Shown here: in pieces, positions 30,109-48,200 of the stretch
Numbering within the stretch: the first letter of the stretch is position 1
Layout of the letters: each line of letters opens with the position of its first letter
DNA from: a virus
Lineage: Duplodnaviria; Caudoviricetes
Length of the DNA stretch: 64,000 nt
IMG/VR virus record: IMGVR_UViG_2772190778_000001
Reading direction: 5' to 3' (one strand)
Position numbers and translations under genes: made by a program
The notes under the pieces: generated by a model
Seen by the model: only the letters and a program-made list of their open reading frames with translations
Told to the model about the DNA's origin: nothing
The model's database searches: none

Positions 30109-30109
30109 T

Positions 30110-30310
30110 TTACTCTCCTGTTGAAGGGGGTGTTGAAAGCAGGCTTGGACCCACACCATGGAGCGCGCAGACGGCGGCCATGGCGGCGATCTCGTCCATT
30201 GAGCAAAGCGTGCTGCCGCGCGGGCCAAGCAGGTCCACCTTAGCTACTCCCGAGGCTGCAAGGCGCAGCATCTCGTCGGGACTCCAGCGGCAGATTTCGG
30301 GGGCGTTCAT
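30110..30310 (-). CDS. Hypothetical early protein
   Basis: Coupled in early operon. Confidence 0.55.
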   Translation of the reverse strand: MNAPEICRWSPDEMLRLAASGVAKVDLLGPRGSTLCSMDEIAAMAAVCALHGVGPSLLSTPPSTGE

Positions 30311-30657: not shown

Positions 30658-31018
30658 CGTCGGCCCCCTTGTGGATGGGGCAGCGATTGCAGGCGCGGTA
30701 CATGGAGACGCTGAGCGAGTTCACATTCTCGAACTGCGCCGCCTTGCCGCGCCAGCGCCGGCAGACCTGTTTGCCGATCTCGCCCAAGGCGGGGCAGTCG
30801 ACCACTTCGCGCATGAAATGCCCGCGCACGAGGTCCTCGACGATGCCGGTATCGGCGGGATAGCGGTTGCGCAGAATGTTCGACACGAGGGTCGCGCTGC
30901 GCTCCATCTTGACCGCGACCTTGTTCTGGCTGGTCTCGTCGCAGGCCCGCGCCAAGGCGGCCACCCAATCGGGCAGGTCCTCGCCCCAGAAGGTGCGGGC
31001 GGTGTCGAGCGCACTCAT
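30644..31018 (-). CDS. Early protein with HTH and Cys cluster
   Basis: SQNKVA...SATLVS HTH-like segment; CPALG...C...C..C. Confidence 0.65.
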   Translation of the reverse strand: MSALDTARTFWGEDLPDWVAALARACDETSQNKVAVKMERSATLVSNILRNRYPADTGIVEDLVRGHFMREVVDCPALGEIGKQVCRRWRGKAAQFENVNSLSVSMYRACNRCPIHKGADDDAA

Positions 31019-31545
31019 GCCGCACCGCCTTTCGCCGGGCTGAAATCGCCGGTGTTGGGATCGAGAATGCCCGCCAGGCGCACCGGCTTGGGCGCGCGCG
31101 GGCCGGTATCCTCGACAATCTGGTAAAGCGCTTCACGGCGGCCGGGAATGGCAGTCTGCCTCACTTTCAAGTGGTTTGAGGCCAAGAGTTGGCGGCAATA
31201 TGCGCGGGCCTTTTCGACAGTCACTTCGACGCCTCCAGCATTGGCATGCGCGGCAACGTCTGTCGGGTTGAAGTGGCGCAGAAGGCGCATGGCGCGCCAC
31301 ATATTGCCCTCGGGTGTTGCCTCGCCAGAGACAGGCTGGGGGCCGGGCAGGGGTAGGTGGCAGGGGCTATACCAGCGCTTGCCGTTGCGCCCGATCCGCG
31401 ACACGCGGATTTGTCCTGCATCCGCCCAGTGTCGGATATAGCGAACGGCAGTCTCGCGGCTGCAGCCAAGTCGAGAGACTTCGGCCCAGTCGAACTCCTC
31501 GAGGTTTTTAACCTCGGCCCACATCTGCGCAAAAAGATCGCTCAT
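31015..31545 (-). CDS. Tandem winged-helix protein
   Basis: Follows B; NMWRAMR motif typical of Mu-like early regions. Confidence 0.65.
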   Translation of the reverse strand: MSDLFAQMWAEVKNLEEFDWAEVSRLGCSRETAVRYIRHWADAGQIRVSRIGRNGKRWYSPCHLPLPGPQPVSGEATPEGNMWRAMRLLRHFNPTDVAAHANAGGVEVTVEKARAYCRQLLASNHLKVRQTAIPGRREALYQIVEDTGPRAPKPVRLAGILDPNTGDFSPAKGGAA

Positions 31546-32339
31546 GCCCGCGCCGCCTTTCCTGCTGGCCCAAGTGGCACAACAGTCTCAGGACTGCGCG
31601 CCGCCGCCGGGCGAAAATCATCAACCCGCCGGACGGCTGGGGGCTGCCCTGTGTCGAAGGCTCGATTAGCCCAAAGCTGGAGGTCGACAGAGCGCTGCCC
31701 TCGGCCCTTGGCCAACTCCTTGGCACGGGCGAGGTTGGTGGCTACCCGCCGCATCGAGCCGCCCGACGCTTCCACAATGGCCTCGAGCAGATCAGAGGCC
31801 ACGTCGACACCTGAAGCGTAGATCGGGACGAGTTTCTGTGCGTCCGTAAGGTTGCAGGCGAGGGCAGGTTCCCATGCGAGCTGCAAACTGTGGATGTTCT
31901 CCCAGCGGGTCAGGTCTTGTGGCAATTTTTCCTCGCCGACGAGGATCAGCGTACCTTGCGAGCCTTTGTAGATATCGCGCACCAGCTCAATCATTCGCTT
32001 TCGCAGGAGGTTCTGCGCATCGTCGATAATGAGCGGACGGTCGGTTCGTGCCAAATGCGCGGAGATCGCATCGGCCATGTGCGTGACCCGTCGCATTGGT
32101 GGCAGGCCAATCTCATGCATTATTTTTTGCACAAGGTCTGTCGGCGTCCAGTAGTCTTTCACTTCAACGAAATATGCCTGATACTCGTTGGCCGCGACCG
32201 TCACGGCGGTGGTCTTGCCCCAGCCGGAGGGTCCATAGAACGTGGCCATGCCGGGTAGGCCAAAGGCGCGGGACTGGACGCGCTCGACGAGGCCGATCAG
32301 CGCTGCGACGTTTCGCAGGGGCGCAATGGAAGGTGTCAT
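31542..32339 (-). CDS. Transposition ATPase (MuB-like)
   Basis: Walker A GPSGWGKT, Walker B LIIDDA; follows transposase. Confidence 0.92.
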   Translation of the reverse strand: MTPSIAPLRNVAALIGLVERVQSRAFGLPGMATFYGPSGWGKTTAVTVAANEYQAYFVEVKDYWTPTDLVQKIMHEIGLPPMRRVTHMADAISAHLARTDRPLIIDDAQNLLRKRMIELVRDIYKGSQGTLILVGEEKLPQDLTRWENIHSLQLAWEPALACNLTDAQKLVPIYASGVDVASDLLEAIVEASGGSMRRVATNLARAKELAKGRGQRSVDLQLWANRAFDTGQPPAVRRVDDFRPAAARSPETVVPLGPAGKAARA

Positions 32340-32357
32340 GCTGCTCTCCTTTTCTTG

Positions 32358-34481
32358 TTACTCTTGGGCACCGAAGCGGCGCTCCATGCGCAGCTGGGTG
32401 CGGTAGTCGGAACTCTGTTGGTAGTCGGCCAGCCAATCGGCCTGCGCCTGCGTCAGCGTCTCGCCCTCCGCCTGCGCGGTCTCGAGGGCGCGGGCACGCA
32501 GAAAAAGGGCCTTGGGATCGTCTTCATCGACCTCAACGGGGCGGGCGCGATGCTCGGCGAGGCGCGTCACGCGGGCCTCAAGCGCTGCTTCGCGCTCTTT
32601 CTCCTCGGCGCTCTGCGCGCGCCGCCGTTTGGGGGCGGCCTTGTGCGGCGTCACAAGCTGATGAACTTGCGCCTCGGGCAGGGGGTCGTCTGCCGCCAGC
32701 CCCGAGGCTGCGCGCACCCGGGCGGCCACCTCGGCCGCCGTCAACTCGCGCGCGGCCTTGGCCTCATCGCGCTGCGCACGCATCCATGTCTTGCGCTTTC
32801 GGTTGTGATCGCGTGCGGCCTCAACGTCGCGGAACTTGGCGTCCTTGAGACATTTGGCATGGCCGAGGTACCGGCCCGCCAGATCATAAACCTCGAGACC
32901 GGCTGTCAAATCATCCGCGTCGAACCGCGCAACCACCTTCTCGCCTGCGATCCGGTACATCCACTCTGACCAGTATTCCGTGTCGTAGAGCTTCAGAGCG
33001 CCGTTGCTGGTCTTGGCCCGCACACCCTCGGCGCGCAGGAGCCAGAGACGCAGTTGTTCGTCCGTCGCGCGCTTGATCGTGGCGCGCGCATAGCCCTCGT
33101 TGAACACCTCATTAAACGACCGTCCCATGGCCACTTCGCTGCGCCGCCCGGGGCGGGCGTTGTGATGCGCGAGTTCGTCCTCTAAGACGAGGCGGAACTC
33201 CTCGAGCGGGATGGCGCGGGTGCCGTAATCCTCGGGCTTGGCGTCCGGTTTGTTGCCGGTATAGGCCCCGTCAAAGGCGGGATGCTTGGCCACCCGGTCG
33301 CAGAGGTCGCGAAACGCGCGCTCGATGGGCTTGGATTGCCCCGAATAGGGTGTGGCCCAATGTATTTCGACGCCCAAGAGCGGAAGGAGGCCGGGAATAT
33401 CCTCGTCGGTGATCTTGAAGCGGAACCGGGTCGGCGTGCCGCCTGTCATCGCCTTGGCCGCGAACTCCCGGCCGTTGTCGATCAGAACCGACTGTGGGAT
33501 GCCATAGGTCCGGATCAGGTCGCCGGTGACCAGCTGCACCGTGTGGCTGTTCGCCGTCGGCGACAGGCGCCAAGCCAAGAGCTTGCCGGAATAGACGTCC
33601 GACCAGACCATCATCTGCGGTCGCACGGGCTTGTCGTAGCCCGGCCACGACACAAAGACGTCGAACTTGTGATAGTCGCCCTGGACGCATTCGAGCGGGG
33701 CCATGAACGCCTTGCTGCGAACCTGCGCAGGATAAAGGCGGCGCAGCGCTTCCTCGCCCTTGCGCATGAAAATCTCCGTGGGTACCGAGACGCTGGCCTT
33801 GAGCCAACGGCGCACCTGATGGAGAGGCGGCACGGCGCTGTTGCGCCGCTCTGAGGTCCAGACGCGCACGGCACGGTCATAGCAACTGGTGAGAGAGGGT
33901 TGCGACAGGCGCAGCCAGTCGCTGCGCACAAGTGACAGAAACGCAGGGTCTATGTCATCCCGCCGGGCGGGGGAGCGCCGCAGCGCGCGCCCGTCGATCA
34001 GGTAAGCCAGCCGGTCGGCCCGGGCGACGCCCTCGACCTGCCCGAGGTAATTCCAGAGGGATTTGTCAGACCGCTCCAGCTTGCGCGCGACCTCGCGCAC
34101 GGCCGCCGAGCGGGTCAGCCCGGCCCCTTCCAGCAATTCGACCTCGGCAATAGCCCCAAGCCGCGCCTCGGCCTCGGCGCGCGCCTTGTCGCCCGCCGCC
34201 GCATAGCGCTCCCATGCCTCGCCAGTCCCGGGCTTATCCGCCGGAGCCGCGACCAGACCGGCGCTGAGCCGCATCCGGGCGCGCAGAGGCAAGATGCTCC
34301 AGTGATACTCGACGCCGCCGCCGACCCCCTTACGCCGCCGGACCTTTCCGGGGTGCCGTGCCCAGCCCTCGCGCACCGCCAGATCGTTGACCTTGCGCTT
34401 TGTGCCGGGCAGGTCGGGCAATCCGGCCTCGGCCAGCTCGGCGGCAGACCACCACTCTTGCGCAGGGGCGGGTCCAGTCAT
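32358..34481 (-). CDS. DDE transposase (MuA-like), 707 aa
   Basis: N-terminal Mu HTH (WWSAAEL...LPG), DYHKFD / DNGREF / KPIERAF catalytic motifs. Confidence 0.95.
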   Translation of the reverse strand: MTGPAPAQEWWSAAELAEAGLPDLPGTKRKVNDLAVREGWARHPGKVRRRKGVGGGVEYHWSILPLRARMRLSAGLVAAPADKPGTGEAWERYAAAGDKARAEAEARLGAIAEVELLEGAGLTRSAAVREVARKLERSDKSLWNYLGQVEGVARADRLAYLIDGRALRRSPARRDDIDPAFLSLVRSDWLRLSQPSLTSCYDRAVRVWTSERRNSAVPPLHQVRRWLKASVSVPTEIFMRKGEEALRRLYPAQVRSKAFMAPLECVQGDYHKFDVFVSWPGYDKPVRPQMMVWSDVYSGKLLAWRLSPTANSHTVQLVTGDLIRTYGIPQSVLIDNGREFAAKAMTGGTPTRFRFKITDEDIPGLLPLLGVEIHWATPYSGQSKPIERAFRDLCDRVAKHPAFDGAYTGNKPDAKPEDYGTRAIPLEEFRLVLEDELAHHNARPGRRSEVAMGRSFNEVFNEGYARATIKRATDEQLRLWLLRAEGVRAKTSNGALKLYDTEYWSEWMYRIAGEKVVARFDADDLTAGLEVYDLAGRYLGHAKCLKDAKFRDVEAARDHNRKRKTWMRAQRDEAKAARELTAAEVAARVRAASGLAADDPLPEAQVHQLVTPHKAAPKRRRAQSAEEKEREAALEARVTRLAEHRARPVEVDEDDPKALFLRARALETAQAEGETLTQAQADWLADYQQSSDYRTQLRMERRFGAQE

Positions 34482-35332
34482 GCCGCGTCCCCTTGGTCAA
34501 TCTCGCCGAACAGCGCCGCAACCTCTGCGCCGCGCTCCTCGAGAAACGCCATGCGCTCCCGCTTGCCCGCACGGTCCCATGCGTCCATGAGGCGCGCGAG
34601 GGTGGCGTCTTTTGGGCTGGCCGGGGCCGGTGCCTCACCGCGCGCGGCGCGGTACGCCTCGCGTGCGGCTTTGACCGTTTTTGCCCGCCCGGCTGATAGT
34701 TCTTCTACAACGAAACCTCGTTCCTCGGCCTCGCCCATTTTGCCGATATCAATCAGGTCCATCACCTCGACCCGCTTTGGAGCGGCACGAAGGCGCTCTA
34801 TCTCTTTGCGCCGTAGGAGACTGCCTGCGCGCACGAAGTTGCGAACGTGGCGCTCGCTGAGGCCGAGATTTTCCGCAACGCTTTCGGCAAAGGATGCGAC
34901 GGAAATCATTTCCGCCGTATCCCATCGCTTGGATGCAAGGCCCGCCCCGGTCGCCGCTTTAGCCTCCGGGTGCAGCCGTTCATAGGCCGACTTGCGTTCA
35001 GCCAAAAACAACGCCAGATCGACCGGGATAAGGGGCTGACTGGCAAGGTTGCCGTCGATCTCCATCATTCTGGCTTCGGCGTCGTTGCAGCGAAAGAGAT
35101 CAACGGGGACCACCGTCTCGCCAAGTTCTTGCATCGCGGTCAAACGGTGCAGTCCCTCGACTAGATAATCGCCGTCCTTCTTACGCCGCACCCATATTTT
35201 GCCACGAAAACCGCTCTGGCGGATCGACGCCTTCAGGCTCTCGACATGCTTGCGCGACACATTCCGCAACCGGTCTTCGACCTTGATCGCTTCAATCGGC
35301 AGTTCGGTGATTGTGGAAAGGTGCTCAATCAT
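34478..35332 (-). CDS. ParB/Srx-like N-terminal domain plus HTH protein
   Basis: LKASIRQSG...LVEGLHRLTA...EIDGNL; coupled to transposase. Confidence 0.8.
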   Translation of the reverse strand: MIEHLSTITELPIEAIKVEDRLRNVSRKHVESLKASIRQSGFRGKIWVRRKKDGDYLVEGLHRLTAMQELGETVVPVDLFRCNDAEARMMEIDGNLASQPLIPVDLALFLAERKSAYERLHPEAKAATGAGLASKRWDTAEMISVASFAESVAENLGLSERHVRNFVRAGSLLRRKEIERLRAAPKRVEVMDLIDIGKMGEAEERGFVVEELSAGRAKTVKAAREAYRAARGEAPAPASPKDATLARLMDAWDRAGKRERMAFLEERGAEVAALFGEIDQGDAA

Positions 35333-35553
35333 TCTGGGGCCTTCGTCATTGTGTAGCGGCAGATCAGCCGGTCGGCTTTGCGCTCGCGGGTGCAGAGGAT
35401 CTCCGCCCCGTTGGCGCGCAATTCGGAAATGCAGCTGTTCACCGCCACCACATGCGCCCGCCGCACGATCTCGCGCGTGGTGTGCGGGCGGCCATCCTTG
35501 AGGACGGCAAGCACCCGTTGCAGGCGGGGCGAGGTGAGCGGCGCGTGATGCAT
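35329..35553 (-). CDS. Small winged-helix protein
   Basis: RVLAVLKDGRPHTTREI...ISELRANG. Confidence 0.7.
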   Translation of the reverse strand: MHHAPLTSPRLQRVLAVLKDGRPHTTREIVRRAHVVAVNSCISELRANGAEILCTRERKADRLICRYTMTKAPE

Positions 35554-35813
35554 CAGCCCACCATCTGGGCGTCGAGCCCGGCGCAATTGGTGCGGCAGTT
35601 GCCGCACATGCGGTGCCCGGGTCCCGTTGACCAGAACTCGGTGCCGCAGGTCAGGCAGGGGCGGTTGCGAGCGTGCTTGGCCTTGAGAGCCTCGTCCTGC
35701 ATTCGGTCTTGGGCGCGCAGCGCGATATCACGATTGCTGAACGCGCCGGACACGCGCTCCTTGCCACGGAAAACGGCGTAGCCGTCGCCCCATCTTTGAA
35801 CATGCAGGTCCAT
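35553..35813 (-). CDS. Small Zn-finger protein
   Basis: RPCLTCGTEFWSTGPGHRMCGNC; SD GGAGG. Confidence 0.7.
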   Translation of the reverse strand: MDLHVQRWGDGYAVFRGKERVSGAFSNRDIALRAQDRMQDEALKAKHARNRPCLTCGTEFWSTGPGHRMCGNCRTNCAGLDAQMVG

Positions 35814-35818
35814 TTCGC

Positions 35819-36007
35819 TCACCTCCCGAAACTCGCGACGGCGAAGAGCAGGACGAACAGCGCCACAGCCCCCACCACATCGCCGATGACAGAAAAAACG
35901 CCCCGGCCGGAGCAAGCAGACTGGGCACAGCCGGGGCGCAGGAGCCGCGCAGCGCACAGGCCAGCACGCGCGCGGAGACGAAACTTATGGGCAAGGCGGC
36001 GGATCAT
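35819..36007 (-). CDS. Small membrane protein
   Basis: C-terminal TM; coupled start. Confidence 0.45.
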   Translation of the reverse strand: MIRRLAHKFRLRARAGLCAARLLRPGCAQSACSGRGVFSVIGDVVGAVALFVLLFAVASFGR

Positions 36008-36216
36008 CGCGAACGCTCCCGGATGAAATCCGCCTTGCGGATCGACAGGTGATGATCCGCAGCCAAGCGGCTCAGGCGCATCAGCGGCAACGCGCAGCGC
36101 GGTTCGTCGATGTCGCGCACCAACTGCAGGGCCAGCGCGACGCGCAGCGCCTGCGGAATGGCCGCGATCTCGTCCTGCAACTGCCCGGCGTCGGGAATGA
36201 GATCGGATAACCGCAT
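36004..36216 (-). CDS. Hypothetical early protein
   Basis: TGATG coupling. Confidence 0.5.
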   Translation of the reverse strand: MRLSDLIPDAGQLQDEIAAIPQALRVALALQLVRDIDEPRCALPLMRLSRLAADHHLSIRKADFIRERSR

Positions 36217-36386
36217 CACATTGAATCCTGTGTTGAAGGGGGTGTTTCAGGGGCGGCACCTCGGCCCAGAACAGCGACGGACAGGCCTGCGGCGACCACG
36301 GCCCAGAAGATGAGGGCAAAGAGGAAGGCTATGGCGAGGCCGCTACCCGGAGGCAGGCGACGTTCGGGTGCGGGGCGCGGGCTCAT
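36216..36386 (-). CDS. 56-aa single-TM protein (below ORF-track cutoff)
   Basis: MSPRPAPERRLPPGSGLAIAFLFALIFWAVV...; coupled to next ORF. Confidence 0.55.
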   Translation of the reverse strand: MSPRPAPERRLPPGSGLAIAFLFALIFWAVVAAGLSVAVLGRGAAPETPPSTQDSM

Positions 36387-36414
36387 GCGGCACCCCCGGT
36401 TGCGCGGACGAGGC

Positions 36415-36444
36415 TCGACACCCCGCCCGCGCGCGCCCTACCAT
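36415..36444 (+). promoter_or_regulatory. sigma70-like promoter TCGACA-N18-TACCAT for antisense gene
   Basis: Read directly; followed by GGAGG and TTG at 36477. Confidence 0.5.
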
Positions 36445-36476
36445 CGTCGCTACCAACAAACCGACGGAGGGAACCC

Positions 36477-36896
36477 TTGGAAAACGAATGGATGACGCAG
36501 GACATATTCGACGGACAGCCGCTGATACTCATGCCGGTCGCGCGCTTCGCCTCAGACCTTGAATTAATCTGGAGAAGCGTCGGCACTACGCGCTTACCGC
36601 ACCCGGCACCCGACGACGTTGAATGGGAGGACATCGTCAAGCGGCTCATTCCTGACCACCCGTCATATATCGGAAGCCGAGATTGGCTCCGCTCATACTC
36701 CGAGCGGGACCGGGCGGCTCTGGGTTACACAGCCAACAGGCTTTGGCATCTGACCCAGCGGCTGGGCATTCACCCGAACGGTGCGCCTGACCCAGAATGG
36801 GTGTTGGCACATTCTGATTGGAGAGCGCGAATGAGCCTGTGTCTTGGTGCAGGAGTGATCCCATTTGCGTGGGTTCGTCTGACTGACGCTCTTTGA
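36477..36896 (+). CDS. 139-aa protein antisense to the early operon
   Basis: Own promoter-like and SD signals; lower GC. Confidence 0.65.
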   Translation: MENEWMTQDIFDGQPLILMPVARFASDLELIWRSVGTTRLPHPAPDDVEWEDIVKRLIPDHPSYIGSRDWLRSYSERDRAALGYTANRLWHLTQRLGIHPNGAPDPEWVLAHSDWRARMSLCLGAGVIPFAWVRLTDAL

Positions 36897-37092
36897 CCCG
36901 GACGGAGCGGAAGACTGGTGTCACCTCGGCACCCTGCGGGAGCCGTGACGCCTTGAACTCGCGCGCAATCCGGCGCACGGCCCCGACGTCGTAAAACTCG
37001 AAGGCCTCACAGCCAAGCTCCTCGCGCGTGGGGCGCGCAGGACGCCCAAGCTCCGGGCAGATCATCAGGGCAAGGCGGCGGCGGATGCTCAT
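36646..37092 (-). CDS. Hypothetical protein coupled to cro; 3' part overlaps antisense gene
   Basis: ATGA overlap with cro stop; MSIRRRLALMICPELG. Confidence 0.45.
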   Translation of the reverse strand: MSIRRRLALMICPELGRPARPTREELGCEAFEFYDVGAVRRIAREFKASRLPQGAEVTPVFRSVRVKERQSDEPTQMGSLLHQDTGSFALSNQNVPTPILGQAHRSGECPAAGSDAKACWLCNPEPPGPARSMSGANLGFRYMTGGQE

Positions 37093-37334
37093 GCGGCGTC
37101 CTCCTGATTGGCGGAAGGTCGAGGGATGTCGCGGGGCCATTCAAGGTCGGTGGGCCAGTTGTCAGAGAACCATTCCGCGACTTTTTGGGCGGTCTTTGTG
37201 CGGCAGTCGTAGCCCCCGATTAGCCGCAAGAAGAACTTGCCGTCGTTCACTGCGTAAACGCCTAGCGTCGAAACCTTGAGGCCAGTGTGGCTCGAATAGC
37301 TACTGGCCAGTGCCTGGATTTGTTCGGAATTCAT
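37089..37334 (-). CDS. Cro/Ner-like lytic regulator
   Basis: Divergent from repressor; STLGVYAVNDGKFFLRL...T..KVAEWFSDNWP pattern. Confidence 0.75.
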   Translation of the reverse strand: MNSEQIQALASSYSSHTGLKVSTLGVYAVNDGKFFLRLIGGYDCRTKTAQKVAEWFSDNWPTDLEWPRDIPRPSANQEDAA

Positions 37335-37347
37335 GCTCGCGCCCTTA

Positions 37348-37420
37348 TTTGGCATTTGCCCAACTATAATTTAGGGAAATGCCAAATTGCAAGCATTTTT
37401 TTATTAGGGCATTTGCCCAA
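37348..37420. promoter_or_regulatory. Three operator-like imperfect palindromes in the repressor/cro switch
   Basis: TTTGGCATTTGCCCAA (37348), TTAGGGAAATGCCAAA (37371, inverted), TAGGGCATTTGCCCAA (37405). Confidence 0.75.
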
Positions 37421-37439
37421 AATGGATTAAGGGAGCGTT

Positions 37440-38096
37440 ATGGACTTTGGATCTCTAGTGCTTGCACGGCTCGAGGAGCTGGGAGAAAATGTGAATAGCT
37501 TTGAGGCCAAGTGCGGCTGGCCTCAAGGCTACCTCCGGGCTGTTGTCAGAAACGACGAGAAGCGAACAAGGCCCAATCTGGAGCGGGCTAAGGAGATCGC
37601 CGAGGCGCTCGACCTTGACTTCTACATTGGGCCAAAGCGGGAGACCGGAACGGTCTACACCACCCAGATCGACCACGAAGATTTCGCGGCGATCCCGCGC
37701 GTCGATGCGCGGCTTGCGGCAGGGGCCGGGGCTTTAAACGGAGAAGTCAGCCTTCAGGGCGCACTTGCGTTTCGCCAGGACTGGCTGCGCGAGCGGGGCA
37801 TCTCCCCGGCACAAGCTTGCCTTCTTACCGTTGCCGGTGACAGCATGTCGCCCACTCTGCACGACGGCGACCTCGTCATGATCGACGAGCGCCGCACCAC
37901 AGTTCGAAATCGCCACGTCTACGCCTTCGTCGACGTCGACGGCAGCGCCCGCGTCAAGCGCGTCGAATTGGTACCCGACCAGCTGATCATCCTGACATCT
38001 GACAATGCCGCCCACCCGACCGAAACACGAACCGGCCCGGACATGAACCGCCTGCGCATCCTCGGCGAGATTGTCTGGTCGGCGCATGCCTGGTAG
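37440..38096 (+). CDS. CI-like repressor (HTH + S24 peptidase)
   Basis: N-terminal HTH, LAAGAG, VAGDSMSPTLHDGD (Ser), VKRV (Lys). Confidence 0.92.
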   Translation: MDFGSLVLARLEELGENVNSFEAKCGWPQGYLRAVVRNDEKRTRPNLERAKEIAEALDLDFYIGPKRETGTVYTTQIDHEDFAAIPRVDARLAAGAGALNGEVSLQGALAFRQDWLRERGISPAQACLLTVAGDSMSPTLHDGDLVMIDERRTTVRNRHVYAFVDVDGSARVKRVELVPDQLIILTSDNAAHPTETRTGPDMNRLRILGEIVWSAHAW

Positions 38097-38150
38097 GCCA
38101 ATCCCTTTAGGCACCGGCCTCGCACGAAGATCCTGAATAGGAGGTTTACG

Positions 38151-38633
38151 ATGAAAGCTCCCACTATGCCTGCCGCGCTCATCGCTACTTTTACATTGGC
38201 CTGCTTTGGCTGCGGCCCTTTTTTTAGTGTCGCCACGCCAGCTCTAGCCCAGAGCGCCGCGAGCCAACAAGAAAGTTACAGTGACATCCAGAAGCGGCTG
38301 AAGACCCAACGCCAAGAGCACCAGATGAACGAGCAACGAAGGCTCTTTAAAGAAAGACAGGATCGATTTTGTAAAGAGGTCGACCTAAGGGCGAGCCTTT
38401 CCATTTCTGCTCGGCAGTTCGGAAAGATGACCGTTGAGCAGGCGTTGGAGGAGTACGTCGGCCCAAGCTACGCTTATAACAAAGGGCAGCGCAGCGTTCA
38501 TGAGGCTATCATTTGGGACGCGTTTAGTGTTCCCGTGGCTTATCAGAACGGCTCGGTTCCTTCGCATGTTTTGAGCGACTTTACCGACAAGTGGGTTGGG
38601 TTATGCGAGCGCGGCGAGCTTGGCTGGCCCTGA
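38151..38633 (+). CDS. Exported protein downstream of repressor
   Basis: SD AGGAGG; signal peptide ending ALA; paired Cys (FC...KW..LC). Confidence 0.7.
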   Translation: MKAPTMPAALIATFTLACFGCGPFFSVATPALAQSAASQQESYSDIQKRLKTQRQEHQMNEQRRLFKERQDRFCKEVDLRASLSISARQFGKMTVEQALEEYVGPSYAYNKGQRSVHEAIIWDAFSVPVAYQNGSVPSHVLSDFTDKWVGLCERGELGWP

Positions 38634-38648
38634 TACCACGCCAAAAAA

Positions 38649-38735
38649 CGCGTCCCACTTCCCTTTGCTCTTCAGCCTAGGCCGAGAATGGCTATATTAT
38701 TGATATTAATAGATTAAACATGTAAGTGGGACGCG
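38649..38735. repeat. 12-bp perfect inverted repeat flanking an AT-rich IHF-like site
   Basis: CGCGTCCCACTT (38649-38660) and AAGTGGGACGCG (38724-38735); TATCAATAATATA on the minus strand between them. Confidence 0.65.
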
Positions 38736-38919
38736 GAATAAGAACTGGGCGGACTTGGTCCCAGTTCCGGACCCCTCAAGTGCCTTGATATGGCCTTCTG
38801 AACACCCCTGAAAGGGCCGTTTAAACCCTGTTTTAATGGGGTTTGGCCGCTTTCTGGCGCTTCCCTCGCCCGCGCCCCTCGTCAGCGCCTTTTTTGCCCT
38901 ATCGGCCCTATTTTGCCCT

Positions 38920-39104
38920 TTCACTGCAAACTTCGCGTACCGCCGAGTTGTCCGCCCGATTATCCCGCCAAAGCCCTTATTTCATTGGCCTATCCGGCAA
39001 AGTCCGGCGTCAGTTCGGTTCTTCCGGCATCACTGTAAACTAATGTGTAACCCTACAGCGTGACAGCGAAGTTTGCAGTGAATTACAGTGAAGTTTACAG
39101 CAAC
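38920..39104. repeat. Four 22-bp transposase-binding-type sites (L2, L1 inverted; R1, R2 direct)
   Basis: rev 38920-38941 GGTACGCGAAGTTTGCAGTGAA; rev 39029-39050 TTACACATTAGTTTACAGTGAT; 39061-39082 TGACAGCGAAGTTTGCAGTGAA; 39083-39104 TTACAGTGAAGTTTACAGCAAC. Confidence 0.8.
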
Positions 39105-39322
39105 GCGATTTTGGAAATGACCGAGTCGAGCGTCACTTTGGACATTAGCTCTAGCCTGGCCCTTTGATTTCGTCACGGTTTGTTCGGGATTCAGAGGTCA
39201 CGGTCAAAAGACAATTGTCGCCATTGATCTTGCGCTAAAGTGAAGCCCCCGCCCAAATCCCACTATTGCGTCAACGAACTGCTCTTCTTAGGCTACCGGT
39301 GATAGCAGCAGGTGATACCCGA

Positions 39323-40699
39323 ATGGATTATTACACAATTGGCGTGCTGGTTTGGTTTTTATCAGCACCGCTTTTTTTCATCCTCTTCCTTATTTTCAGA
39401 TCGAAGCTCCGGTCGACACGTAAGCAGATGATTGACCTTGAGGCGTCGACCCAGCGCGTTCGGGAACAGGCCGACGCAAATGTGAAGGCGTCTGACGAAA
39501 AATACAGCTGGATAACCTCGCGAGAAAAAGAAATTGAACGCTTAGAGGCCAGTGCATCGCAACTGCGCAAAGACATTGATGAGTTGCGCACCTCATACAA
39601 GGATAAGAAGTCGACTTTTGATCGGCTACGGCAAGAGGTCGCCTTATACGACGAACGGATAGCTTTCGCGGAACTTGGCGTCTATGAGCCCCATTTCGAC
39701 TTCGGAGATTCTGAGGTTTTCAGGACCGCAATCAACGAAGTCCGTGAAAAGCAGAAGGCCATGGTATCAGCCAAAATGGCGACGGCCTGTCCGACTGATT
39801 GGACCGTGGACGGTAGCAAGTCCAAGGGAGCCGCGATGATCAATCGTCAGACTCGATTGACCCTGCGCGCGTTCAACAGTGAATGCGACGCCGCAATAGC
39901 GAACGCTCGCTGGAACAACGTAAACGCCATGGAGAAGCGTATCTTGAACGCGGAGAAGCAAATCAACGCGGCCAATGCCTCTATGAACCTGACCATTCGC
40001 GGGGAGTATGTTGCTTTGAAGCTTGATGAGCTGCATCTGACCCACGAGTACCGCGAACAGCAGAAGCGCGAGAGGGACGAGCGGGCAGAAAGTGCGCGGC
40101 TGGACCGAGAGGAGAAAAAGCTCCAAGCTGAAGCCGCCGCCGCAGCCGCCGAAGAGAAAAAGTACCAAGAGATGCTTGATAAGGCACGGCAGGAAGTAGG
40201 CGTTGATGAGGAAAGAATCGTAGAACTAGAGCGCGCATTGGCTGAGGCCCACGAGAAGACAGAACGGGCAAAATCCATGGCGGAAATGACGAAGTCTGGG
40301 TATGTCTACATCATCTCGAACGTCGGTAGCTTTGGTGAAGACGTTGTCAAAATCGGATTGACCAGAAGGCTCGATCCAGACGACCGGGTGCGTGAGCTTG
40401 GAGATGCAAGCGTACCGTTTCTGTTTGACACTCATGCCATGATTTATTCTGAAGAAGCTCCGGCTCTCGAGGCCGCTTTGCATCGGGAATTTGAAGAAAG
40501 ACGTGTAAACGCCGCAAACATGCGCAAAGAGTTCTTCCGGGTTTCTCTCGAGGAGGTCGAAGAGGCGGTGAAGCGCCTTGCCACGGGCGCAGAGTTTTTC
40601 AAGGATCGCGAGGCACAGGAGTGGCACGAGACCTTGTGGCGCAGGAAGCAGCTATTGTCTGCCCAAGGAACCGCCGAGGCGTTGCCTGATAATATCTAA
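39323..40699 (+). CDS. DUF4041 / T5orf172 (GIY-YIG-like) protein with N-terminal TM
   Basis: LRAFNSECD, GYVYIISNVGSFGEDVVKIGLTRR, SVPF.FD.HA, RKEFF motifs. Confidence 0.9.
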   Translation: MDYYTIGVLVWFLSAPLFFILFLIFRSKLRSTRKQMIDLEASTQRVREQADANVKASDEKYSWITSREKEIERLEASASQLRKDIDELRTSYKDKKSTFDRLRQEVALYDERIAFAELGVYEPHFDFGDSEVFRTAINEVREKQKAMVSAKMATACPTDWTVDGSKSKGAAMINRQTRLTLRAFNSECDAAIANARWNNVNAMEKRILNAEKQINAANASMNLTIRGEYVALKLDELHLTHEYREQQKRERDERAESARLDREEKKLQAEAAAAAAEEKKYQEMLDKARQEVGVDEERIVELERALAEAHEKTERAKSMAEMTKSGYVYIISNVGSFGEDVVKIGLTRRLDPDDRVRELGDASVPFLFDTHAMIYSEEAPALEAALHREFEERRVNAANMRKEFFRVSLEEVEEAVKRLATGAEFFKDREAQEWHETLWRRKQLLSAQGTAEALPDNI

Positions 40700-40834
40700 C
40701 GAGAACCATTAAAAAAATCGAAGTCAACCGTGACCGCGTCTAAAGAAATTCCTTGAGGTATCCTAATTCGCCAACGTTCGACGGCCGAACCTCATCTTTT
40801 CAACGCCCCTTTAACACCCCGCTAAACACCTCCC

Positions 40835-40873
40835 TCACTCCACATACCGAAACCCCTGCACGGCGCGGGAATG
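40835..40873 (-). pseudogene. Remnant of the last 12 codons of the ABC-GNAT gene
   Basis: HSRAVQGFRYVE* versus HFRAVQGFRYVE*; 37-bp perfect match 40832-40868 = 42323-42359. Confidence 0.8.
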
Positions 40874-41060
40874 TCCCATATGCGCAGGAGGCGGGCTTTG
40901 CAAAGGTGGGATCTTGGCACCGAAGCCGACCTTCGTGACAGCGCAGCGAATGACGGGTCGGAGCCCATTGTGCTGGATGCTGCGTTTTGCACCAACGACT
41001 GTTTTCGCAACAACAATTGAGAAGCAGGTGCGTAACGGACAAGAAAACTCCGGAAACACA

Positions 41061-41954
41061 TTAAAAGCGGAAGTCACGTCCCTTTTTCTTTGCCTTCTGA
41101 CGAAGATCGGATACTCTTTTGCGGCTCTCTTCTGTTAATTCATTGTCAACTTCTGTGAGAGCGGCATTGATCGTTTTCTTCTCGATCAGTAACTCTTTTA
41201 GTAAATTGTTTAATGCGATATCGATTTCGTGAAAGCACGCGAAGACCGACTGATAGCATTCCGAAGCTGGATCTGAATAGTATTGATATTCAACTCCATC
41301 AACTTCAATGCTCTCCACCGTTATCTCGGGTTTATCGAGCTTTTCGAGCTCAACGCTCTCCTTCCAGGTTGCATTGTCGTAAAGAGCAGACGTAGTGCCA
41401 GGAAAAAATGTGTAAGGATTGAATTTTGCGGCATCTTCCAGCTCGAACATCAAGGCTTCGAGCTTCAGTGGAAGATTAGTGGTACTTCTGAGTTTCATGA
41501 TCTCGTAGTGGAAGTTCTTCCTAGTCAGAATATTCTCTATGAATTGCCTCTCAAAACCAAAGGGCGATGGATAGTATTCAACAAATCTAGGTATATAGTC
41601 ACCATGATCGCCTGCCCACTTTTCTTGGAAAAACGGAACTCTTGAATAAAGCTCATCTTTAATTTGGAGGACTGGAATCAACGCATTTTCCAAATCGCTT
41701 CTCATTAAAACCAAACTCTCTCTAGTCGCGGCCAAAGACTGGCGTCGGGTCTCAATGACCTGCCGAGCAGCGTACCAAATTGCAATCACGGTAAATATGG
41801 CTGCAAGGGGATTTATCCAACTTCGCAGGCAGATAACTGGGCTCTCGTCGGCAACACAGAAATAGCTATGGAGAGAAGACGCGTAAAGCCAGGCCGCAAA
41901 CAAAAGTACTACGCTGCCCAACGAAACAGCGCATAGGATGAAAAGTTGTTTCAT
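41061..41954 (-). CDS. AT-rich ORFan with two N-terminal TM helices (alternative start 41984)
   Basis: Long open frame with GC far below flanks; hydrophobic N-terminus. Confidence 0.75.
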   Translation of the reverse strand: MKQLFILCAVSLGSVVLLFAAWLYASSLHSYFCVADESPVICLRSWINPLAAIFTVIAIWYAARQVIETRRQSLAATRESLVLMRSDLENALIPVLQIKDELYSRVPFFQEKWAGDHGDYIPRFVEYYPSPFGFERQFIENILTRKNFHYEIMKLRSTTNLPLKLEALMFELEDAAKFNPYTFFPGTTSALYDNATWKESVELEKLDKPEITVESIEVDGVEYQYYSDPASECYQSVFACFHEIDIALNNLLKELLIEKKTINAALTEVDNELTEESRKRVSDLRQKAKKKGRDFRF

Positions 41955-42325
41955 ACGTTTAGAGTCCCTTTTGCCTTCCACCAACCGTTGGCCAGAGTTG
42001 CCGATGGATACTGAGACGTCAATTGCTTGGTGTGCATTCCTCTGCAGGATCGCCTCGGGCAGCCAATGCTGCCATCAACTAACTCCCCGAAGTGTCCTAG
42101 GGCTTTCAATGGATGCCGTTCACCATTGCCGGGTAGCAATTTACGAGCGGTCATTGTTCTTAACAAGATCAGCGACCTCATCGTCCGCATCCTACCAGTT
42201 CGTGGCCCCCGCGGTGAATGTCAGCTATCGCAAATTCGCGTCTGGGACCGTGGGTCCGCTTCGGGCTGACATCGGTCATTAACTAGGAACATGAGGGGCA
42301 GGTTTAACCCCCCTTAAACACCCCC

Positions 42326-43435
42326 TCACTCCACATACCGAAACCCCTGCACGGCGCGGAAATGGCCGCCATAGCCAGTCCCGGCGGGCTTCAGGCCGCG
42401 ACGCGCCCGGGCAGCGGCGAGGGTCTTCATGCTGCGTTCCTTGGACTGGGCGTAGAGGATGGCGGAGACCTGCGCCCAGAGGGGATCGCGGCGGAGCGCT
42501 GCGGCGAGGCCGGGGTGCGAGGTGTGAAAGAGCATCGGCATCGGTTTGTCGTAGCGGTTCACGCCGCGCCGCCAGAGGGCGCAGACCTCGTTGAGAAAGC
42601 GCAGGCCCAGCCCCGCGCCTTGCCACTCGGGCATGACGACAAGGCGACAGGCGCGGCCCTCGACCAGCCCCGGCCGGGTCGAGACGGCGAGATGCGCCAC
42701 GGGCGCGCCATCGACGAAACCCACGTAGTAATTGGCCGCGATCATGCGGGGCAGCTTCAGGTAGTGATGCGGCTCAAAGGCGGGCCAGAAGGAGCCGTCC
42801 GTCTGGTGAATGTCCATGGCAATGCGCGGTGCCCGTCGAAGACGCCTCCAGCGGAACTCGGCGCGGCGGGTGTCGATCACCCAATCGGGCTGTAGCCATG
42901 ACACCACGTCCTCGTGACAGGTGACGGCGACGAACTGGCCTTTGCCGCGCCGCCACGCCTTGGCAAACGCGGCGGCCCCGATCTGGGCCACGCGCCGGTC
43001 GATGGTCGAGGTGAACTCGTCGAGAATGGCAAAGCTCGGCCGCTCTGCCAGAATGCGCGCCAACTCAGCCCGGAATTGCTCGCCGGTCGAGAGATGGTGG
43101 AAGGGGCGCAGCCAGCTCGGCACGGTGCCAAGGCCCACGGCGGAGAGGGCCGCCGCGACGGCATCGAATGCGCCCTCGGGATCAATCGCGTCGATCAGCG
43201 CGCCCTCGGGCCACGGACGTGGATCAAGCTGCGCGCCAAAGGCCGCGCGGGCAAGCGAGGATTTGCCGCTGCCCGAGGGGCCGACAATGAGGCCGATCTG
43301 CCACGGCCGGGCCAAGAGATCGGCCTCGACCTCGAGGCGGAAATCCGCGTCGCCCTCGACGTTGAAGAGGCTGGAGACCCGGGCCGCGCGGTAGGTGTCC
43401 GGGATGGGGCTAGGGTGGTGGATGGCGAGCTTCAT
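42326..43435 (-). CDS. ABC-ATPase / GNAT fusion (P2 copy)
   Basis: Only a few aa differ from 1-1110; same motifs. Confidence 0.85.
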   Translation of the reverse strand: MKLAIHHPSPIPDTYRAARVSSLFNVEGDADFRLEVEADLLARPWQIGLIVGPSGSGKSSLARAAFGAQLDPRPWPEGALIDAIDPEGAFDAVAAALSAVGLGTVPSWLRPFHHLSTGEQFRAELARILAERPSFAILDEFTSTIDRRVAQIGAAAFAKAWRRGKGQFVAVTCHEDVVSWLQPDWVIDTRRAEFRWRRLRRAPRIAMDIHQTDGSFWPAFEPHHYLKLPRMIAANYYVGFVDGAPVAHLAVSTRPGLVEGRACRLVVMPEWQGAGLGLRFLNEVCALWRRGVNRYDKPMPMLFHTSHPGLAAALRRDPLWAQVSAILYAQSKERSMKTLAAARARRGLKPAGTGYGGHFRAVQGFRYVE

Positions 43436-43614
43436 GTCACCACCACGCGGCATTTGAAGCCCTGACGGCGCAGGCGGCCAAAGGCATCCACTTGGGCGGC
43501 CTCGTCCTCGAGCAGGACAATGACGCCATATTGCCGCCGGTAGCGGGTGCCCTTGGGCAGGCCCGGCGCACCGGGCGGCAGCTCAGGTTTCGGGAGGGTG
43601 GACGATCTTGCCAA
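43432..43614 (-). CDS. 60-aa protein (P2 copy)
   Basis: Near-identical to 1107-1289. Confidence 0.75.
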   Translation of the reverse strand: MARSSTLPKPELPPGAPGLPKGTRYRRQYGVIVLLEDEAAQVDAFGRLRRQGFKCRVVVT

Positions 43615-43786
43615 GTTTGGCTCCTTCTCTTAGCGCATCGCGCTTTGGGGGAAGGGCTCTTGGCCTCGGTGTGTTCATGGCCCGGCATCTTGGGCACTTG
43701 ATCGAGATGCCGGATATCCGCGCGCCTCTCGAAAACTTGAATAACAAACGGCCACATGCGCAGCAACGGGCATCTCGATCTTCCAC
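43583..43786 (-). CDS. com: Com-like zinc-finger regulator (P2 copy)
   Basis: RCCACGRLLFK...IKCPRCRAMN; GAGG + GTG start. Confidence 0.85.
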   Translation of the reverse strand: MEDRDARCCACGRLLFKFSRGARISGISIKCPRCRAMNTPRPRALPPKRDALREGAKLGKIVHPPET

Positions 43787-44361
43787 TTAGAATCACCTCA
43801 TAAGATCACCGCCCCCTTGGGGCAGGGAGCGGCCATGAGGTCTGTCTGGTCGGCGGGGTTTCTGTTTGGTGACGTGGCCCCGTGCCCTAGGGCGCGTTCC
43901 AGAAGCGCGCGCCCTAGGGTCTCTCTCTAGCGCCACAGTGGGGCCAGCGGCCGGTGTGGTTCGCCAGTTTCGCGCGGGGCAATCGGCCATTCCAGATGAA
44001 GGATTTCCGAGGGTCCCACGGCCCCTTGTGCTGTTTGAGCCCTTTGGCGCTGCCAATCTCTGAGCGGGCCGCCGGAGACACACGTATCTCGCCACGATGT
44101 GAACGGGAGTGAGGCCTTATGCGGCCCCGCGGACCTCGACCCTGACCACAGAATCGCCCATTGGTGCCGCGGCTCTCCTCCGAGCTTGGGGCGATGATTT
44201 GTTGTGTTGGTCGGCGGGGCCCTGCGTTTTGCATCCCCGTGCCTCGGGACGTGCCCTCCCTGCGTCCCGAGGCCCCCATGGAGGCAGGCCTATAAGGGTC
44301 ACCAATGGTCTGCGGCATAATCCGCCTGCATCGGGTCCATGGCCAGCAGCGCAGTCAGGAC

Positions 44362-44805
44362 TTAGCTGTCGAACTCTGCTATTTCAGCCTCGAACTGCCC
44401 GAGCGCATCGTCAGTATCCGTTACAGATTGCGACAGGCTAATGGCCTGGATCGTTTCGATCCGCGCCTTTTCCAATTGAGCGCCAATGTCTCTCCACTGG
44501 GCCGCCAGATTCAGAAACACTTGGGCCACTTCGTATGCGCTGCTGCCTGTAGATCCGACTTCTCCGGCAATAAATGGATAGTCTTGTTCCCAGCCTGCCA
44601 CCGTGTTTGGTTCGGGTGTTGCTGCGACGTACGCCAAGGCCTCGGCTTCCTTGGCCATGTAGATCATGGATTGACCCGCAATCGACGTGATGAACCTCGA
44701 CCTGATCTGATCCATTCTCTTGTTGACGGCATCCTTGGCTTTAGCCTTGCAAACGTTCAGTTCGCGCGCTTTGCTCACATCGGAGCGGGACAATATGCGT
44801 GTCAT
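44362..44805 (-). CDS. Tail fibre assembly-type protein
   Basis: RFITSIAGQSMIYMAKEAEALAY pattern; follows tail tip. Confidence 0.65.
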   Translation of the reverse strand: MTRILSRSDVSKARELNVCKAKAKDAVNKRMDQIRSRFITSIAGQSMIYMAKEAEALAYVAATPEPNTVAGWEQDYPFIAGEVGSTGSSAYEVAQVFLNLAAQWRDIGAQLEKARIETIQAISLSQSVTDTDDALGQFEAEIAEFDS

Positions 44806-45224
44806 TCAATCATTACCTCGGCAAATGTTGGAACATGGGGAAATGGTGCTTCGACCTCGACCCGGTATGTTCCGGGGTCAATAAATTCAAATGCCTCCTC
44901 GTGATCATCGGTTTCGGCAATGATTGTTGCCATGACTTCTTGACCAGTTTGATCAAATACATTGATCGTCGTTCCTTCGGAGCATGACGGAACAATTATC
45001 TTGCCATCACTTGAATAAGGTTGGGGCGACTTTGGTCTTGAAACAAGGATACCTTCGACAAGCATCATGTTACTCAGCTCATAAAGGGTCACCGGAACGG
45101 GTGTTTGAATCTCGCCGTCGCTTGGCTGATCGACCACAACCCTCATAAATCCCTCGGGTTGACCGCTGGTAGAAACTGCTTCCTGGACAATGCCCTGTTC
45201 GTTCAATTTCACAAAATATCCCAT
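44802..45224 (-). CDS. Putative tail-associated/chaperone protein, AT-rich
   Basis: SD GGAGG; coupled; low GC. Confidence 0.6.
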   Translation of the reverse strand: MGYFVKLNEQGIVQEAVSTSGQPEGFMRVVVDQPSDGEIQTPVPVTLYELSNMMLVEGILVSRPKSPQPYSSDGKIIVPSCSEGTTINVFDQTGQEVMATIIAETDDHEEAFEFIDPGTYRVEVEAPFPHVPTFAEVMIE

Positions 45225-45225
45225 G

Positions 45226-48200
45226 TTACCTCCTTACTGCCCTTAGACTAATAGCTGCGTTTCTCAGGCAGTTTTGGGTTGTTGACAAACCTCCAGTCGG
45301 AAAATCATAGGCCGTCAAAAGACGAAGCTGGACGCTGTCCGCATTGTAAATGCGATTGGTTACAAAGTGTCTTTGAGTGTAAGTTGCCCCAATACCGCCG
45401 ATAGCATAGCCACTATTGTAAAGGTTCGCCCAAGCGCTCCAAGAGCCCGCAAAGTTGATCCGTTCTTGTAACAGGAATGCGGTGTTCACAACCCGGCCAT
45501 CAAAAGCCGATGTTCCTGCTGGCCTATGTTCAAAGAAGGTACCAATTGTGTACATTGACTCTGGTGTGGCGTCTCCGGACGAAAGTGTGGTCAGGCAGTG
45601 AACTGAGTTATGTGCAACGTGCTGAGCGGCCGTGCTAAGTGCAGTTCCCCCATCAGAAACAGAGCCTTCGACAAGCGAAGATCGAACGATCAGACTGTTG
45701 AACTCGGCATTACCGTTTTTGTTGATCTGCCATCCCATAGAACCGGCAGAAAAATCATCAGATTGAAGAGCATCACCAAAGAGAGCCAGACCAGCGGCCG
45801 CGAAACTTCCAGTGTTGATATGATTGGATTGAATTTCGCCATCAACAATCAGCTTTCCAGTATTCATGCGGCGCACCATGACGCCACCTATGTAGCAGTT
45901 GGTGGTGCCGTTGTTGCCTTTGATCAGACGAATGCGCGCGAACTTGAAGCCCGCCGGAACATTGATCGCGCCCTCGACCTTCGTGATGGAGGTAGAGGAG
46001 ACGGCCCCAATATTCGCGAAGATGTAGTCGGTTCCGTTCACGCCGGAAAAGGTCGGGTTTCTGGACAACTGCAGGTCCGCATAAACGTTGCCTGTTCCGG
46101 CGACGATCCGTGCAAAATAACGGAAATAGAGGGCTTCCCCTTCACCGTTCAACTCAATCGTAAAGAGGCTGTTGGATACGGTGTAGGTCGTGCCCACCCC
46201 TTGCAAGCGCGCAAGGTTGGTGGATCCCCAGCTCGTGATGGCAGAGGTCGTGATCCAGTCGACGCCAGCAGGGTTGGACCATGCGGAATGATCATCAAAA
46301 TTGGCGTCGACATTCAGGTTGTCGAAGGACCCGATGGCCATATTCCGCGCGCGCACGGCGTTGGCCGCCAATTGATCCGCGCCAATGGCGCCTGCCGCGA
46401 TGGAGGCGGCCGTGAATTGCCCCACCACGTCGGTGCTGGCAACCGAGGCGACATAGGCCGTACCGTTCCAGCGATAGATTTTGCCGCCAAACGCGACCAG
46501 CTCAGTCGATTTGACCGTGGGCAGAGACCCCACAACCGTGACCGGCTCCAGACCCGCCGCAAAGCTCGTCGCGTCAATCAGCCCTTGAAGTGCCTCCTGA
46601 TTGATCACGTCGCCCGCCGCGCGCGCGGTGGCCGTCACCCTCGCAGACCAGCCTGATTTGTTGCCCGAGGTGTCGACCGCGCGCACCCAATAGTTCAGGG
46701 TCTGGCCCCCTGTCAGGTTCTGGCTGATAAATTGCGGCGTGGTGGTGATATAGGTCGGCACAGTGCTGACGCCCGGAGCCGTGGCCGACACCCGCTCGAC
46801 GATCTCATAGCGCGACAGATCGCTTTCGGTGTTGGCGGTCCACTTGACCCAGATGCCCTCGAACATCCCCTCGGCAGAGATGCCGCTCGGGACGGCGGGC
46901 GGTATCGTATCGACAGCCGCCGTGATGCCAACCGCTGCCGACCAAGCCGACTTGGTGCCAATCGCCGACACCGCGCGCACGCGCATCGAAAACACCGATC
47001 CCGGCACCCCATCGCGAGACCACGCAGGCCCTCCGGCCGGAAAGATCGTCTCGGTCCCGCCCGTGGTGACCCCCACCTCGTAACTGGCCGCATTCGCAAC
47101 AGCACCCCAGACTGCGGAGACCCGCGAGAGGGCGTCGGCGACCAGCACCGTTGCCAGTGCCAGCCCCGTCGGCACAGTCACGGTGGTGAGTGCGGGATCA
47201 AGATCGACGCCGGTCATGCGCAGGTCGGGCGTGGTCACGCTCAGCCATGGCGACCAGGCGGTCGGGGCATCCGCCACGTAGCGGGCGCGCACCTCGTATT
47301 CCGTGGCGGCGATCAGATCGCCGCGCACCAGCACGCGGCCACCTTCCACCGGCTTGATCCCCTCGGCGATGAGCTCCTGCGTGGCCCGGACGCGGACCTC
47401 ATAGCGCAGGTTTCGGATCGACGGGAACGCATCGTCAACCGTCCAGGTCAGCAGGATTGCCGGGCGGCGAGCATTGCCCGCATCGTCAGACAGATCAAAG
47501 GCCGCAACAGACAGCGCCACGACCGCAGGGGTGGGCGGCGTTTGCCCGTTGGTCGGCAGAGGGGCTGCGACTTCAAGCTCCGGCTTGATCGCAACGTCGC
47601 CCGCCTCGCGCTCGCGCACGGTCACGACCTGCAAGAGCGTGTCGGGTCGGTCCTCGACCTCGATCACCTCGAACATTTTGCTGGTGTAACCAAAGGTCTC
47701 GGAGGTGAAGCTGATCGAATCCAGCGGCTCAACTAGGGCAAAGGACGGCGGCAGCGTCATCTGATGGGTGCGAAACCGTCGCCCGTCCAGCAGATAGGCG
47801 TTCAAGAGTTGCTGCGCCTGCGCCTTGACGCTTACGGCTGGCAGGCCAAGGCTGGATACGCGCTGACGGCCATCCTCGGCCACCCAATCCTCATTGAGGA
47901 TCAGATCGGCGTCCCGACCTTCCCAAATGTCGTTTGGCTCAACATAGGTGCCGGTGATGCCGTTGGTCACGGTGTCGAACGCCGGGAACGGTGTCAGCAC
48001 AGACCCTTCCGTGATTACGAAATCCGCGTCGGTCACATGCAGGACCGGGGCGGCGGGCGCACCCACGCGCACCCGGAACACCCCACCAAACTCGCTCATC
48101 TGGGCAAAGCTGGCGCGGTTCATTTCCTCGATCACATCGACGGGCTCCATTTCCTCGACGTTGATCTCGAACCCGGCCACGTATTGCTTGCGCCCGCCGA

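Follow-up and report, generated by a model that had tools for sequence, protein, structure and literature searches.

The DNA analyzed here (the window: 64,000 nt, positions 3609563-3673562 of contig C1 in genome G000) contains a point at which the left end of one Mu-like prophage, P1, is fused directly to the right end of another, P2, whose outermost bases are missing. The locus raises the question of how two such ends came to be joined, and whether the joining is peculiar to this genome.

Prophages and terminal sites at the junction

The genome was searched with the junction sequence to map the ends, and three right ends and three left ends were found, all in the same orientation. P1 (minus strand, C1 3607962-3648619, 40,658 bp) extends from window position -1600 to 39057; most of it (1..39057) is within the window, the first position of which is 1,600 bp downstream of the right end of P1. 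P2 (minus strand, C1 3648620-3690594, 41,975 bp) follows immediately, occupying 39058..64000 and continuing to 81032, with its four terminal bases split off. The third element, P3 (C1 3690603-3696405, window coordinates 81041-86843, beyond the window; L006:104-5906), is a Mu-ended remnant of 5,803 bp that is phage-like only at about 59 bp of the right end and about 200 bp of the left end. No phage genes were found in its interior, which encodes an ECF sigma factor with DUF6596 and ORFs without a Pfam match. An internal repeat of 380 bp (83% identity) is also present in P3.

The predicted transposase of P1 (707 aa, minus strand, 32358..34481) is of the MuA type with a DDE domain (Pfam DDE_2, 3e-45; HTH_Tnp_Mu_2, HTH_Tnp_Mu_1 and Mu-transpos_C). 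It adjoins a MuB-like AAA+ ATPase (265 aa, minus strand, 31542..32339), matched by generic AAA+ profiles (AAA_22, 1.8e-16, and AAA) and not by a MuB-specific model. A repressor with an S24 (LexA-like) domain (218 aa, plus strand, 37440..38096; Peptidase_S24) is encoded near the left end, and the structural ORFs are long and intact. The phage closest to P1 is Thiobacimonas phage vB_ThpS-P1, the transposases sharing 62.5% of amino acids.

The MuA, MuB and repressor genes of P2 lie beyond the window and are intact. The P2 transposase, also of 707 aa, is 91% identical to that of P1, and the ATPases are 79% identical, while the repressors can be aligned only from residue 44 on (67% identity). Since the N-terminal DNA-binding parts of the repressors differ, the two phages probably differ in immunity, as judged from the alignment. 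Their DNA is 82-93% identical where it can be aligned, and each phage has its own cargo, so P1 and P2 are two phages and not a duplicated assembly.

Around the right end of P2 (window 38000-46000) the GC content is 0.50-0.53, compared with 0.65 elsewhere. This region encodes a 477-aa protein with DUF4041 and T5orf172/MUG113 domains (plus strand, 39266-40699) and a 307-aa ORF without a Pfam match; P1 has neither, and these right-end-proximal genes of P2 are probably accessory or defense cargo. At the opposite end, the approximately 5.6 kb between the repressor and the left end of P2 contain a 1,067-aa ORF directly after the repressor (plus strand, L005:11372-14575, beyond the window), also absent from P1. 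An exact 11-nt copy of a right-end tip, TGTAGCGTGAC, is found inside a P2 coding region at 54862-54872 and carries no insertion.

At the junction, two putative transposase sites of the P1 left end face two of the P2 right end. The outer P1 site, L2 (minus strand, 38918..38939), contains a perfect inverted 17-nt match to R1 of P2 (38920-38936 versus 39066-39082, by sequence comparison within the window), and the inner one, L1 (minus strand, 39029..39050), is an inverted match to R2 (39033-39050 complementary to 39083-39100 at 78%), with a gap of about 90 nt between L2 and L1. The motif CTGTAAA..TGT of L1 is conserved among related left ends. The P2 sites R1 (39063-39082) and R2 (39085-39104; together 39063..39104, plus strand) are direct repeats 22 bp apart, with 88% identity between 39063-39078 and 39085-39100. 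In the whole 4.38-Mb genome the R1 core, allowing up to two mismatches, occurs in the three right ends, in L2 and in three other places, and because of this rarity the match between the sites is not a chance one. R1 is identical in P1, P2 and P3, both P2 sites are identical to those of P3, and the three right ends have 55-59 bp in common (90-98% identity).

Only twelve nucleotides separate L1 from R1. The first seven, CCCTACA (39051-39057), are the left terminus of P1 (5'-TGTAGGG on the minus strand), which is also found at the left end of P2 and in relatives. The remaining five, GCGTG (39058..39062, plus strand), are positions 5-9 of the P2 right end and, at the same time, one of the two copies of the 5-bp duplication that P1 generated at its target. 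The preceding TGTA, present in the intact right ends of P1 and P3, is absent here. The preliminary description, made from the window alone, had already recognized L2 and L1 facing abutting R1 and R2, the P1 end at 39057 with the terminus TGTAGGG, and a P2 right end clipped by 3-4 nt; the sites and the terminus are where it placed them, and comparison with P1 and P3 sets the loss at four nucleotides.

Origin of the junction

Directly outside the right end of P1, at C1 3607953-3607961 (window -1609 to -1601), the sequence reads TGTA GCGTG. This 9-mer joined to the window from 39063 onward rebuilds a right end identical over 51 nt to that of P3. Across the insertion, the flank ends in TGTAGCGTG, P1 runs from TGTAGCGTGACAGCG to CCCTACA, and P2 follows as GCGTGACAGCG; at the outer boundary TGT TGTAGCGTG is followed by the P1 right end, TGTAGCGTGACAGCGAAG, and at the inner one CCCTACA is followed by GCGTGACAGCGAAG of P2. 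The 9-mer comprises the missing TGTA and a second GCGTG, and hence P1 was inserted by transposition into bases 5-9 of the P2 right end, with a 5-bp duplication. Exactly this sequence beside the outer end of P1 had been predicted in the preliminary description under transposition into the P2 tip.

Its second proposal, that an end-joined circle of P1 entered by a single homologous crossover with P2, so that the junction is the circle junction minus four bases, does not predict a reciprocal fragment of TGTA and a second GCGTG outside the right end of P1, and was rejected on this account. P1 and P2 do have kilobases in common at 84-93% identity, which makes recombination possible, but a circle would join the two ends of one phage, while at the junction the left end of P1 meets a right end of P2 that leads into DNA found only in P2. 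Target duplications confirmed in three further genomes (see below) also speak against this origin, which we consider very improbable.

Still less credence is given to an assembly error, in which similar prophages would have been wrongly joined at the common 59-bp end repeats. The right ends of P1, P2 and P3 are alike over 55-59 bp (90-98%), and a draft Phaeobacter assembly breaks at just such a junction. However, the G000 assembly consists of three contigs and is 100% complete, both flanks of the junction are unique within read length, and a reciprocal 9-mer 40 kb away is not something an assembler would invent. The same architecture is seen in independent assemblies from other genera; together with the unique flanks, this led us to discard misassembly as practically negligible.

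The insertion has consequences for P2, which now reads TACA where its terminal TGTA stood, so that the transferred strand would end in TA and not in CA. In Mu the terminal CA is required for cleavage and strand transfer. On this analysis P2 is probably crippled and unable to transpose by itself, and it is reasonable to infer that it depends on the outer end of P1. The right end of P1 and the left end of P2 could move a composite of 82,633 bp, too long for one phage head; the size agrees with the approximately 80 kb suggested before.

The P1 insertion is one layer at a site with older ones. To the left of the split P2 tip, host sequence ending in CCAG is followed by TGTTGCGTGAC, two TGT, TGTAGCGTGAC and another TGT, and only then by TGTAGCGTG; thus tip pieces of TGT, 9 nt and 11 nt (below, scars) lie outside the outermost right end. 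The outermost piece has the variant TGTTGCG; in a different genome (L035), a related phage has this variant as its tip. On the other side, the left end of P2 is followed by GTGAC TGT and then by the intact right end of P3. Inspection of both outer termini, recommended in the preliminary description, thus gave the expected TGTA GCGTG upstream of the window, while P2 proved to be flanked on both sides by GTGACTGT, i.e. by eight identical bases and not five. With GTGACTGT on both flanks, P2 sits within an 11-nt copy of a right-end tip and not in host DNA; the eight-base flank requires an extra assumption and counts against the explanation preferred below. The host flanks are 86 bp apart at the empty site of a relative (G007), and so all 89.4 kb present between them in G000 are inserted DNA. 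For the oldest target duplication of the array, AGCAT after the left end of P3, no counterpart was found on the left side. About 930 bp with a GAD-like/Tdi1-like gene separate the P3 left end from the conserved host flank.

Recurrence of end-targeted insertions

Related junctions were collected by sequence similarity from 400 genomes of the family, by one genome scan and by two scans of viral contigs; 147 genomes of the genus, searched in addition, yielded further arrays. Between left and right ends, Citreimonas salinaria DSM 26880 has TTGT (duplication TTGTT), Roseovarius sp. 217 has GCGTG (duplication GCGTG), and Tritonibacter scottomollicae DSM 25328 has TT and a 14-nt scar (duplication TTTGT). 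The duplication was confirmed in all three, which are the other genomes where the junction was compared with the outer right end. In Phaeobacter sp. B1627 the spacer is GCGTG TGT, at a contig end. About eleven IMG/VR contigs of 33-82 kb (most of them 73-82 kb) have ACTGT between the ends, and one contains two such junctions 44.7 kb apart. All junctions are head to tail. In a Roseovarius MAG (ET02-08; L096 / L054, C1 about 399002) the spacer is absent: a left end is joined directly to an intact right end, and the sequence at the outer end contains no matching duplication. This junction is of the kind that a joined circle would leave; it may be an assembly effect or a different kind of event.

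For a tally, 31 right ends were picked by similarity alone. Six have the left end of another phage at most 12 nt away and 14 carry tip scars; one has TGT repeats only, one is ambiguous, and nine are clean. Junctions or tip scars are thus present within 46 nt of 20 right ends out of 31, while TGTAGC occurs in 0.9% of 46-nt windows of the same loci; counts across related genomes are not independent, and many Roseovarius arrays lie at one host locus and possibly have a common ancestry. Scar lengths vary from 1 to 17 nt, with 3, 9 and 11 nt the commonest. The resident right-end terminus is the target far more often than expected by chance.

Mu-type phages insert near-randomly, and P1 could have chanced on the P2 tip, the lysogen surviving because the site was harmless. 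The lineage also has clean primary insertions with ordinary duplications (CGGGG in G469, ACCCT in G551), which show that its phages can insert elsewhere too. Against such an absence of preference, the chance of hitting a 30-bp window in a 4.4-Mb genome is about 7 per million, compared with 20 marked right ends in 31; moreover, several arrays record many successive insertions, and plenty of harmless intergenic DNA is available elsewhere. Random insertion is therefore highly improbable as an explanation.

In at least nine Roseovarius genomes, ends or arrays of the lineage are located in one intergenic region, with differing boundaries. The region (left of C1 3607920 and right of C1 3697361; loci L097, L098, L099, L103, L109, L116, L117, L119) is bordered on one side by an acyl-CoA dehydrogenase-like gene and on the other by a conserved convergent gene. 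It may be a landing pad of ancient origin or a hot spot, or the pattern may result from spread via flank homology. This clustering favors another alternative, in which the junction was made by transposition in a different host and imported with P1 by homologous recombination through headful-packaged host/prophage flanks, so that arrays would spread from strain to strain of Roseovarius at a single locus and new insertions into ends would play no part. In Mu-type phages both virion ends carry host DNA, and the 75 nt beside the array are identical in G000 and Roseovarius sp. 217, while the flanks overall are 82-89% identical. However, the scar series and boundaries vary by genome, and junctions with other duplications at other loci and in other genera mean that many independent end insertions would still be required. 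In addition, host DNA of more than 1 kb is reported to be lacking at the virion termini of vB_ThpS-P1 (PMC5488378). We consider import unlikely, though less so than the alternatives above.

Some scars recur: TGTAGCGTT was found in four or five unrelated genomes, and the record of vB_ThpS-P1 itself (KT381864) has it as a 9-nt tip scar outside the right end. Some scars could therefore travel with the phage, which counts against the preferred explanation. Several further features were observed near the ends. Just outside right-end arrays there are ATGATTTCCCAT-like repeats with a spacing of about 20 bp (L060 in Tritonibacter, L033 in G431, L067:1-61 in KT381864); they occur in three unrelated genomes and may be the end of another mobile element. 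At L119 and L101 (G459:C21 219092-221284), beside a full prophage, there is a pair of right ends pointing toward each other at a distance of about 2 kb, and a 17-nt piece resembling a left-end tip, TGTAGGTTTACAAACTT, precedes the right-end scars of the G459 array; the arrangement has the appearance of an inversion or of insertion into a left end. The statement that only right ends are targeted has to be softened by two possible left-tip scars (G459 and G475).

As a small control, Mu itself was considered in Escherichia coli, where its right end is present in six of 5,426 complete genomes. In these six genomes, which represent only four independent sites, no tip repeats were found, and each right end abuts a broken host gene.

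Proposed mechanism and comparison with known systems

The explanation that we hold to be very likely, on the sequence evidence above, is ordinary MuA-type transposition into the tip of the resident P2 right end, this terminus being a preferred landing site in the lineage and the arrays and scars following from the preference. P1, a Mu-like transposable siphophage, inserted into the related resident P2 by MuA-type DDE transposition with a 5-bp staggered cut. The P2 tip was thereby split, TGTA and GCGTG staying outside the right end of P1, 40.66 kb off, and GCGTG with the rest of P2 following the left end of P1. Phages of this lineage (Roseobacter-group relatives of vB_ThpS-P1) appear to prefer a resident right-end terminus, over a stretch reaching about 8 nt outward and about 17 nt inward, and successive end insertions would build head-to-tail arrays.

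Scars would arise when an inserted phage is lost again. An insertion at offset p would leave tip bases 1 to p+4 of the resident outside the newcomer. Should recombination between the two right ends then remove the newcomer, or should two homologous phages collapse into one, the tip piece presumably stays as a scar; where the arrival is further out, the same kind of deletion would take scars and host bases with it. The model would account for the 9-nt and 11-nt pieces, and for the TGT pieces only if insertions at p = -1 or occasional cleavage at the outer CA are assumed.

As for the choice of the terminus, we would guess that the near-identical R1/R2 of the resident are recognized by the transposase of the newcomer, which would draw the transpososome to the adjoining terminus, since the transposases are 91% identical and R1 is the same in P1, P2 and P3. 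A rigid model of transposase sitting on R1 agrees poorly with insertions inside R1 (17-nt scars) and with those in scars as much as about 25 nt away from it. The single orientation could result from the geometry of the complex or from selection removing long inverted repeats. A preference for the 7-mer GCGTGAC alone was considered and is unlikely: the genome has 1,227 copies of it, the tip copy at window position 54862 is untouched, and the clean insertions are in unrelated 5-mers.

A bolder reading, tentative yet quite possible, is that a resident right end, even an orphan or defective one, serves as a dedicated attachment site for incoming phages of the lineage. The arrival would disable a competitor by removing its terminal TG, spare host genes, and be losable later by recombination between the direct-repeat ends; remnant right ends at one Roseovarius site would then be landing pads older than speciation. 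If this is true, loss through the repeated ends would be a curing route that Mu-type phages otherwise lack. The clipping of the resident terminus by the newcomer points to competition between phages, and the reading would account for tandem arrays, mosaic phages and orphan ends in marine Roseobacter genomes. Mu is the textbook case of a transposon avoiding its own ends, so a lineage that homes to the end of a resident would demonstrate that the choice of target can be reversed in this family, and would give a tractable system for asking how.

The published description of vB_ThpS-P1 is silent on ends, insertion sites and tandem arrays (PMC5488378). This phage (KT381864) resembles the elements studied here in having the best transposase match, the same gene order and the same right end, TGTAGCGTGACAGCGAAGTTTGCAG; P1 and P2 are distinct from it as phages and carry other cargo. 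A literature search, with subscription journals mostly outside its coverage, gave no account of Mu-like phages inserting into resident ends, and we regard the novelty of the behavior as provisional.

On all the sequence features compared, these elements are Mu-like transposable phages. The likeness to Mu includes a MuA-family DDE transposase with Mu-type DNA-binding and C-terminal domains, an adjoining ATPase (by its generic AAA+ match), TG...CA termini (TGTAGCG..., ...CCCTACA), and several repeats per end that, by sequence, are of the transposase-binding type, with L1 and L2 spaced and R1 and R2 abutting. Target duplications are of 5 bp (GCGTG for P1; TTGTT, GCGTG, TTTGT, CGGGG and ACCCT in relatives), P2 with its eight identical flanking bases being the exception. 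The MuA identity is only about 33%, and the phages of this lineage are siphoviruses with a ParB-like gene. The main difference lies in target immunity. In Mu, DNA near the ends is the least used target, whereas here the resident right-end terminus is favored, the left end of another phage or scars lying within 46 nt of 20 of the 31 right ends. This failure of target immunity departs from Mu behavior and is compatible with membership in the Mu-like family. In Pseudomonas phage Ab30, only 0.4% of events are reported to escape target immunity, and end domains of 900 bp and 700 bp to be among the coldest for insertion (PMC5977238).

In behavior only, the junctions resemble the products of insertion sequences, since an element that inserts into or beside the end of a copy already present leaves abutted ends a few bases apart. 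IS30 and IS21 use their own terminal repeats as targets, and head-to-tail (IS)2 dimers result. Their transposase families are unrelated to the enzyme found here, which is of the MuA type, and they are 1-2 kb long, compared with 40-kb viruses; furthermore, abutted IS ends are a reactive intermediate of one element, whereas here two phages are joined with a normal 5-bp duplication.

Tn7-like elements stacked at attTn7 and tandem lambdoid prophages at one attB offer a further parallel: successive arrivals in one orientation, the newest beside a fixed landmark, and old members decaying to remnants. Those stacks depend on a TnsD selector or a site-specific integrase and on host sequence. In the present arrays it is the end of the preceding element that serves as landmark, and insertion is the work of a transposase, an enzyme credited with little site preference.
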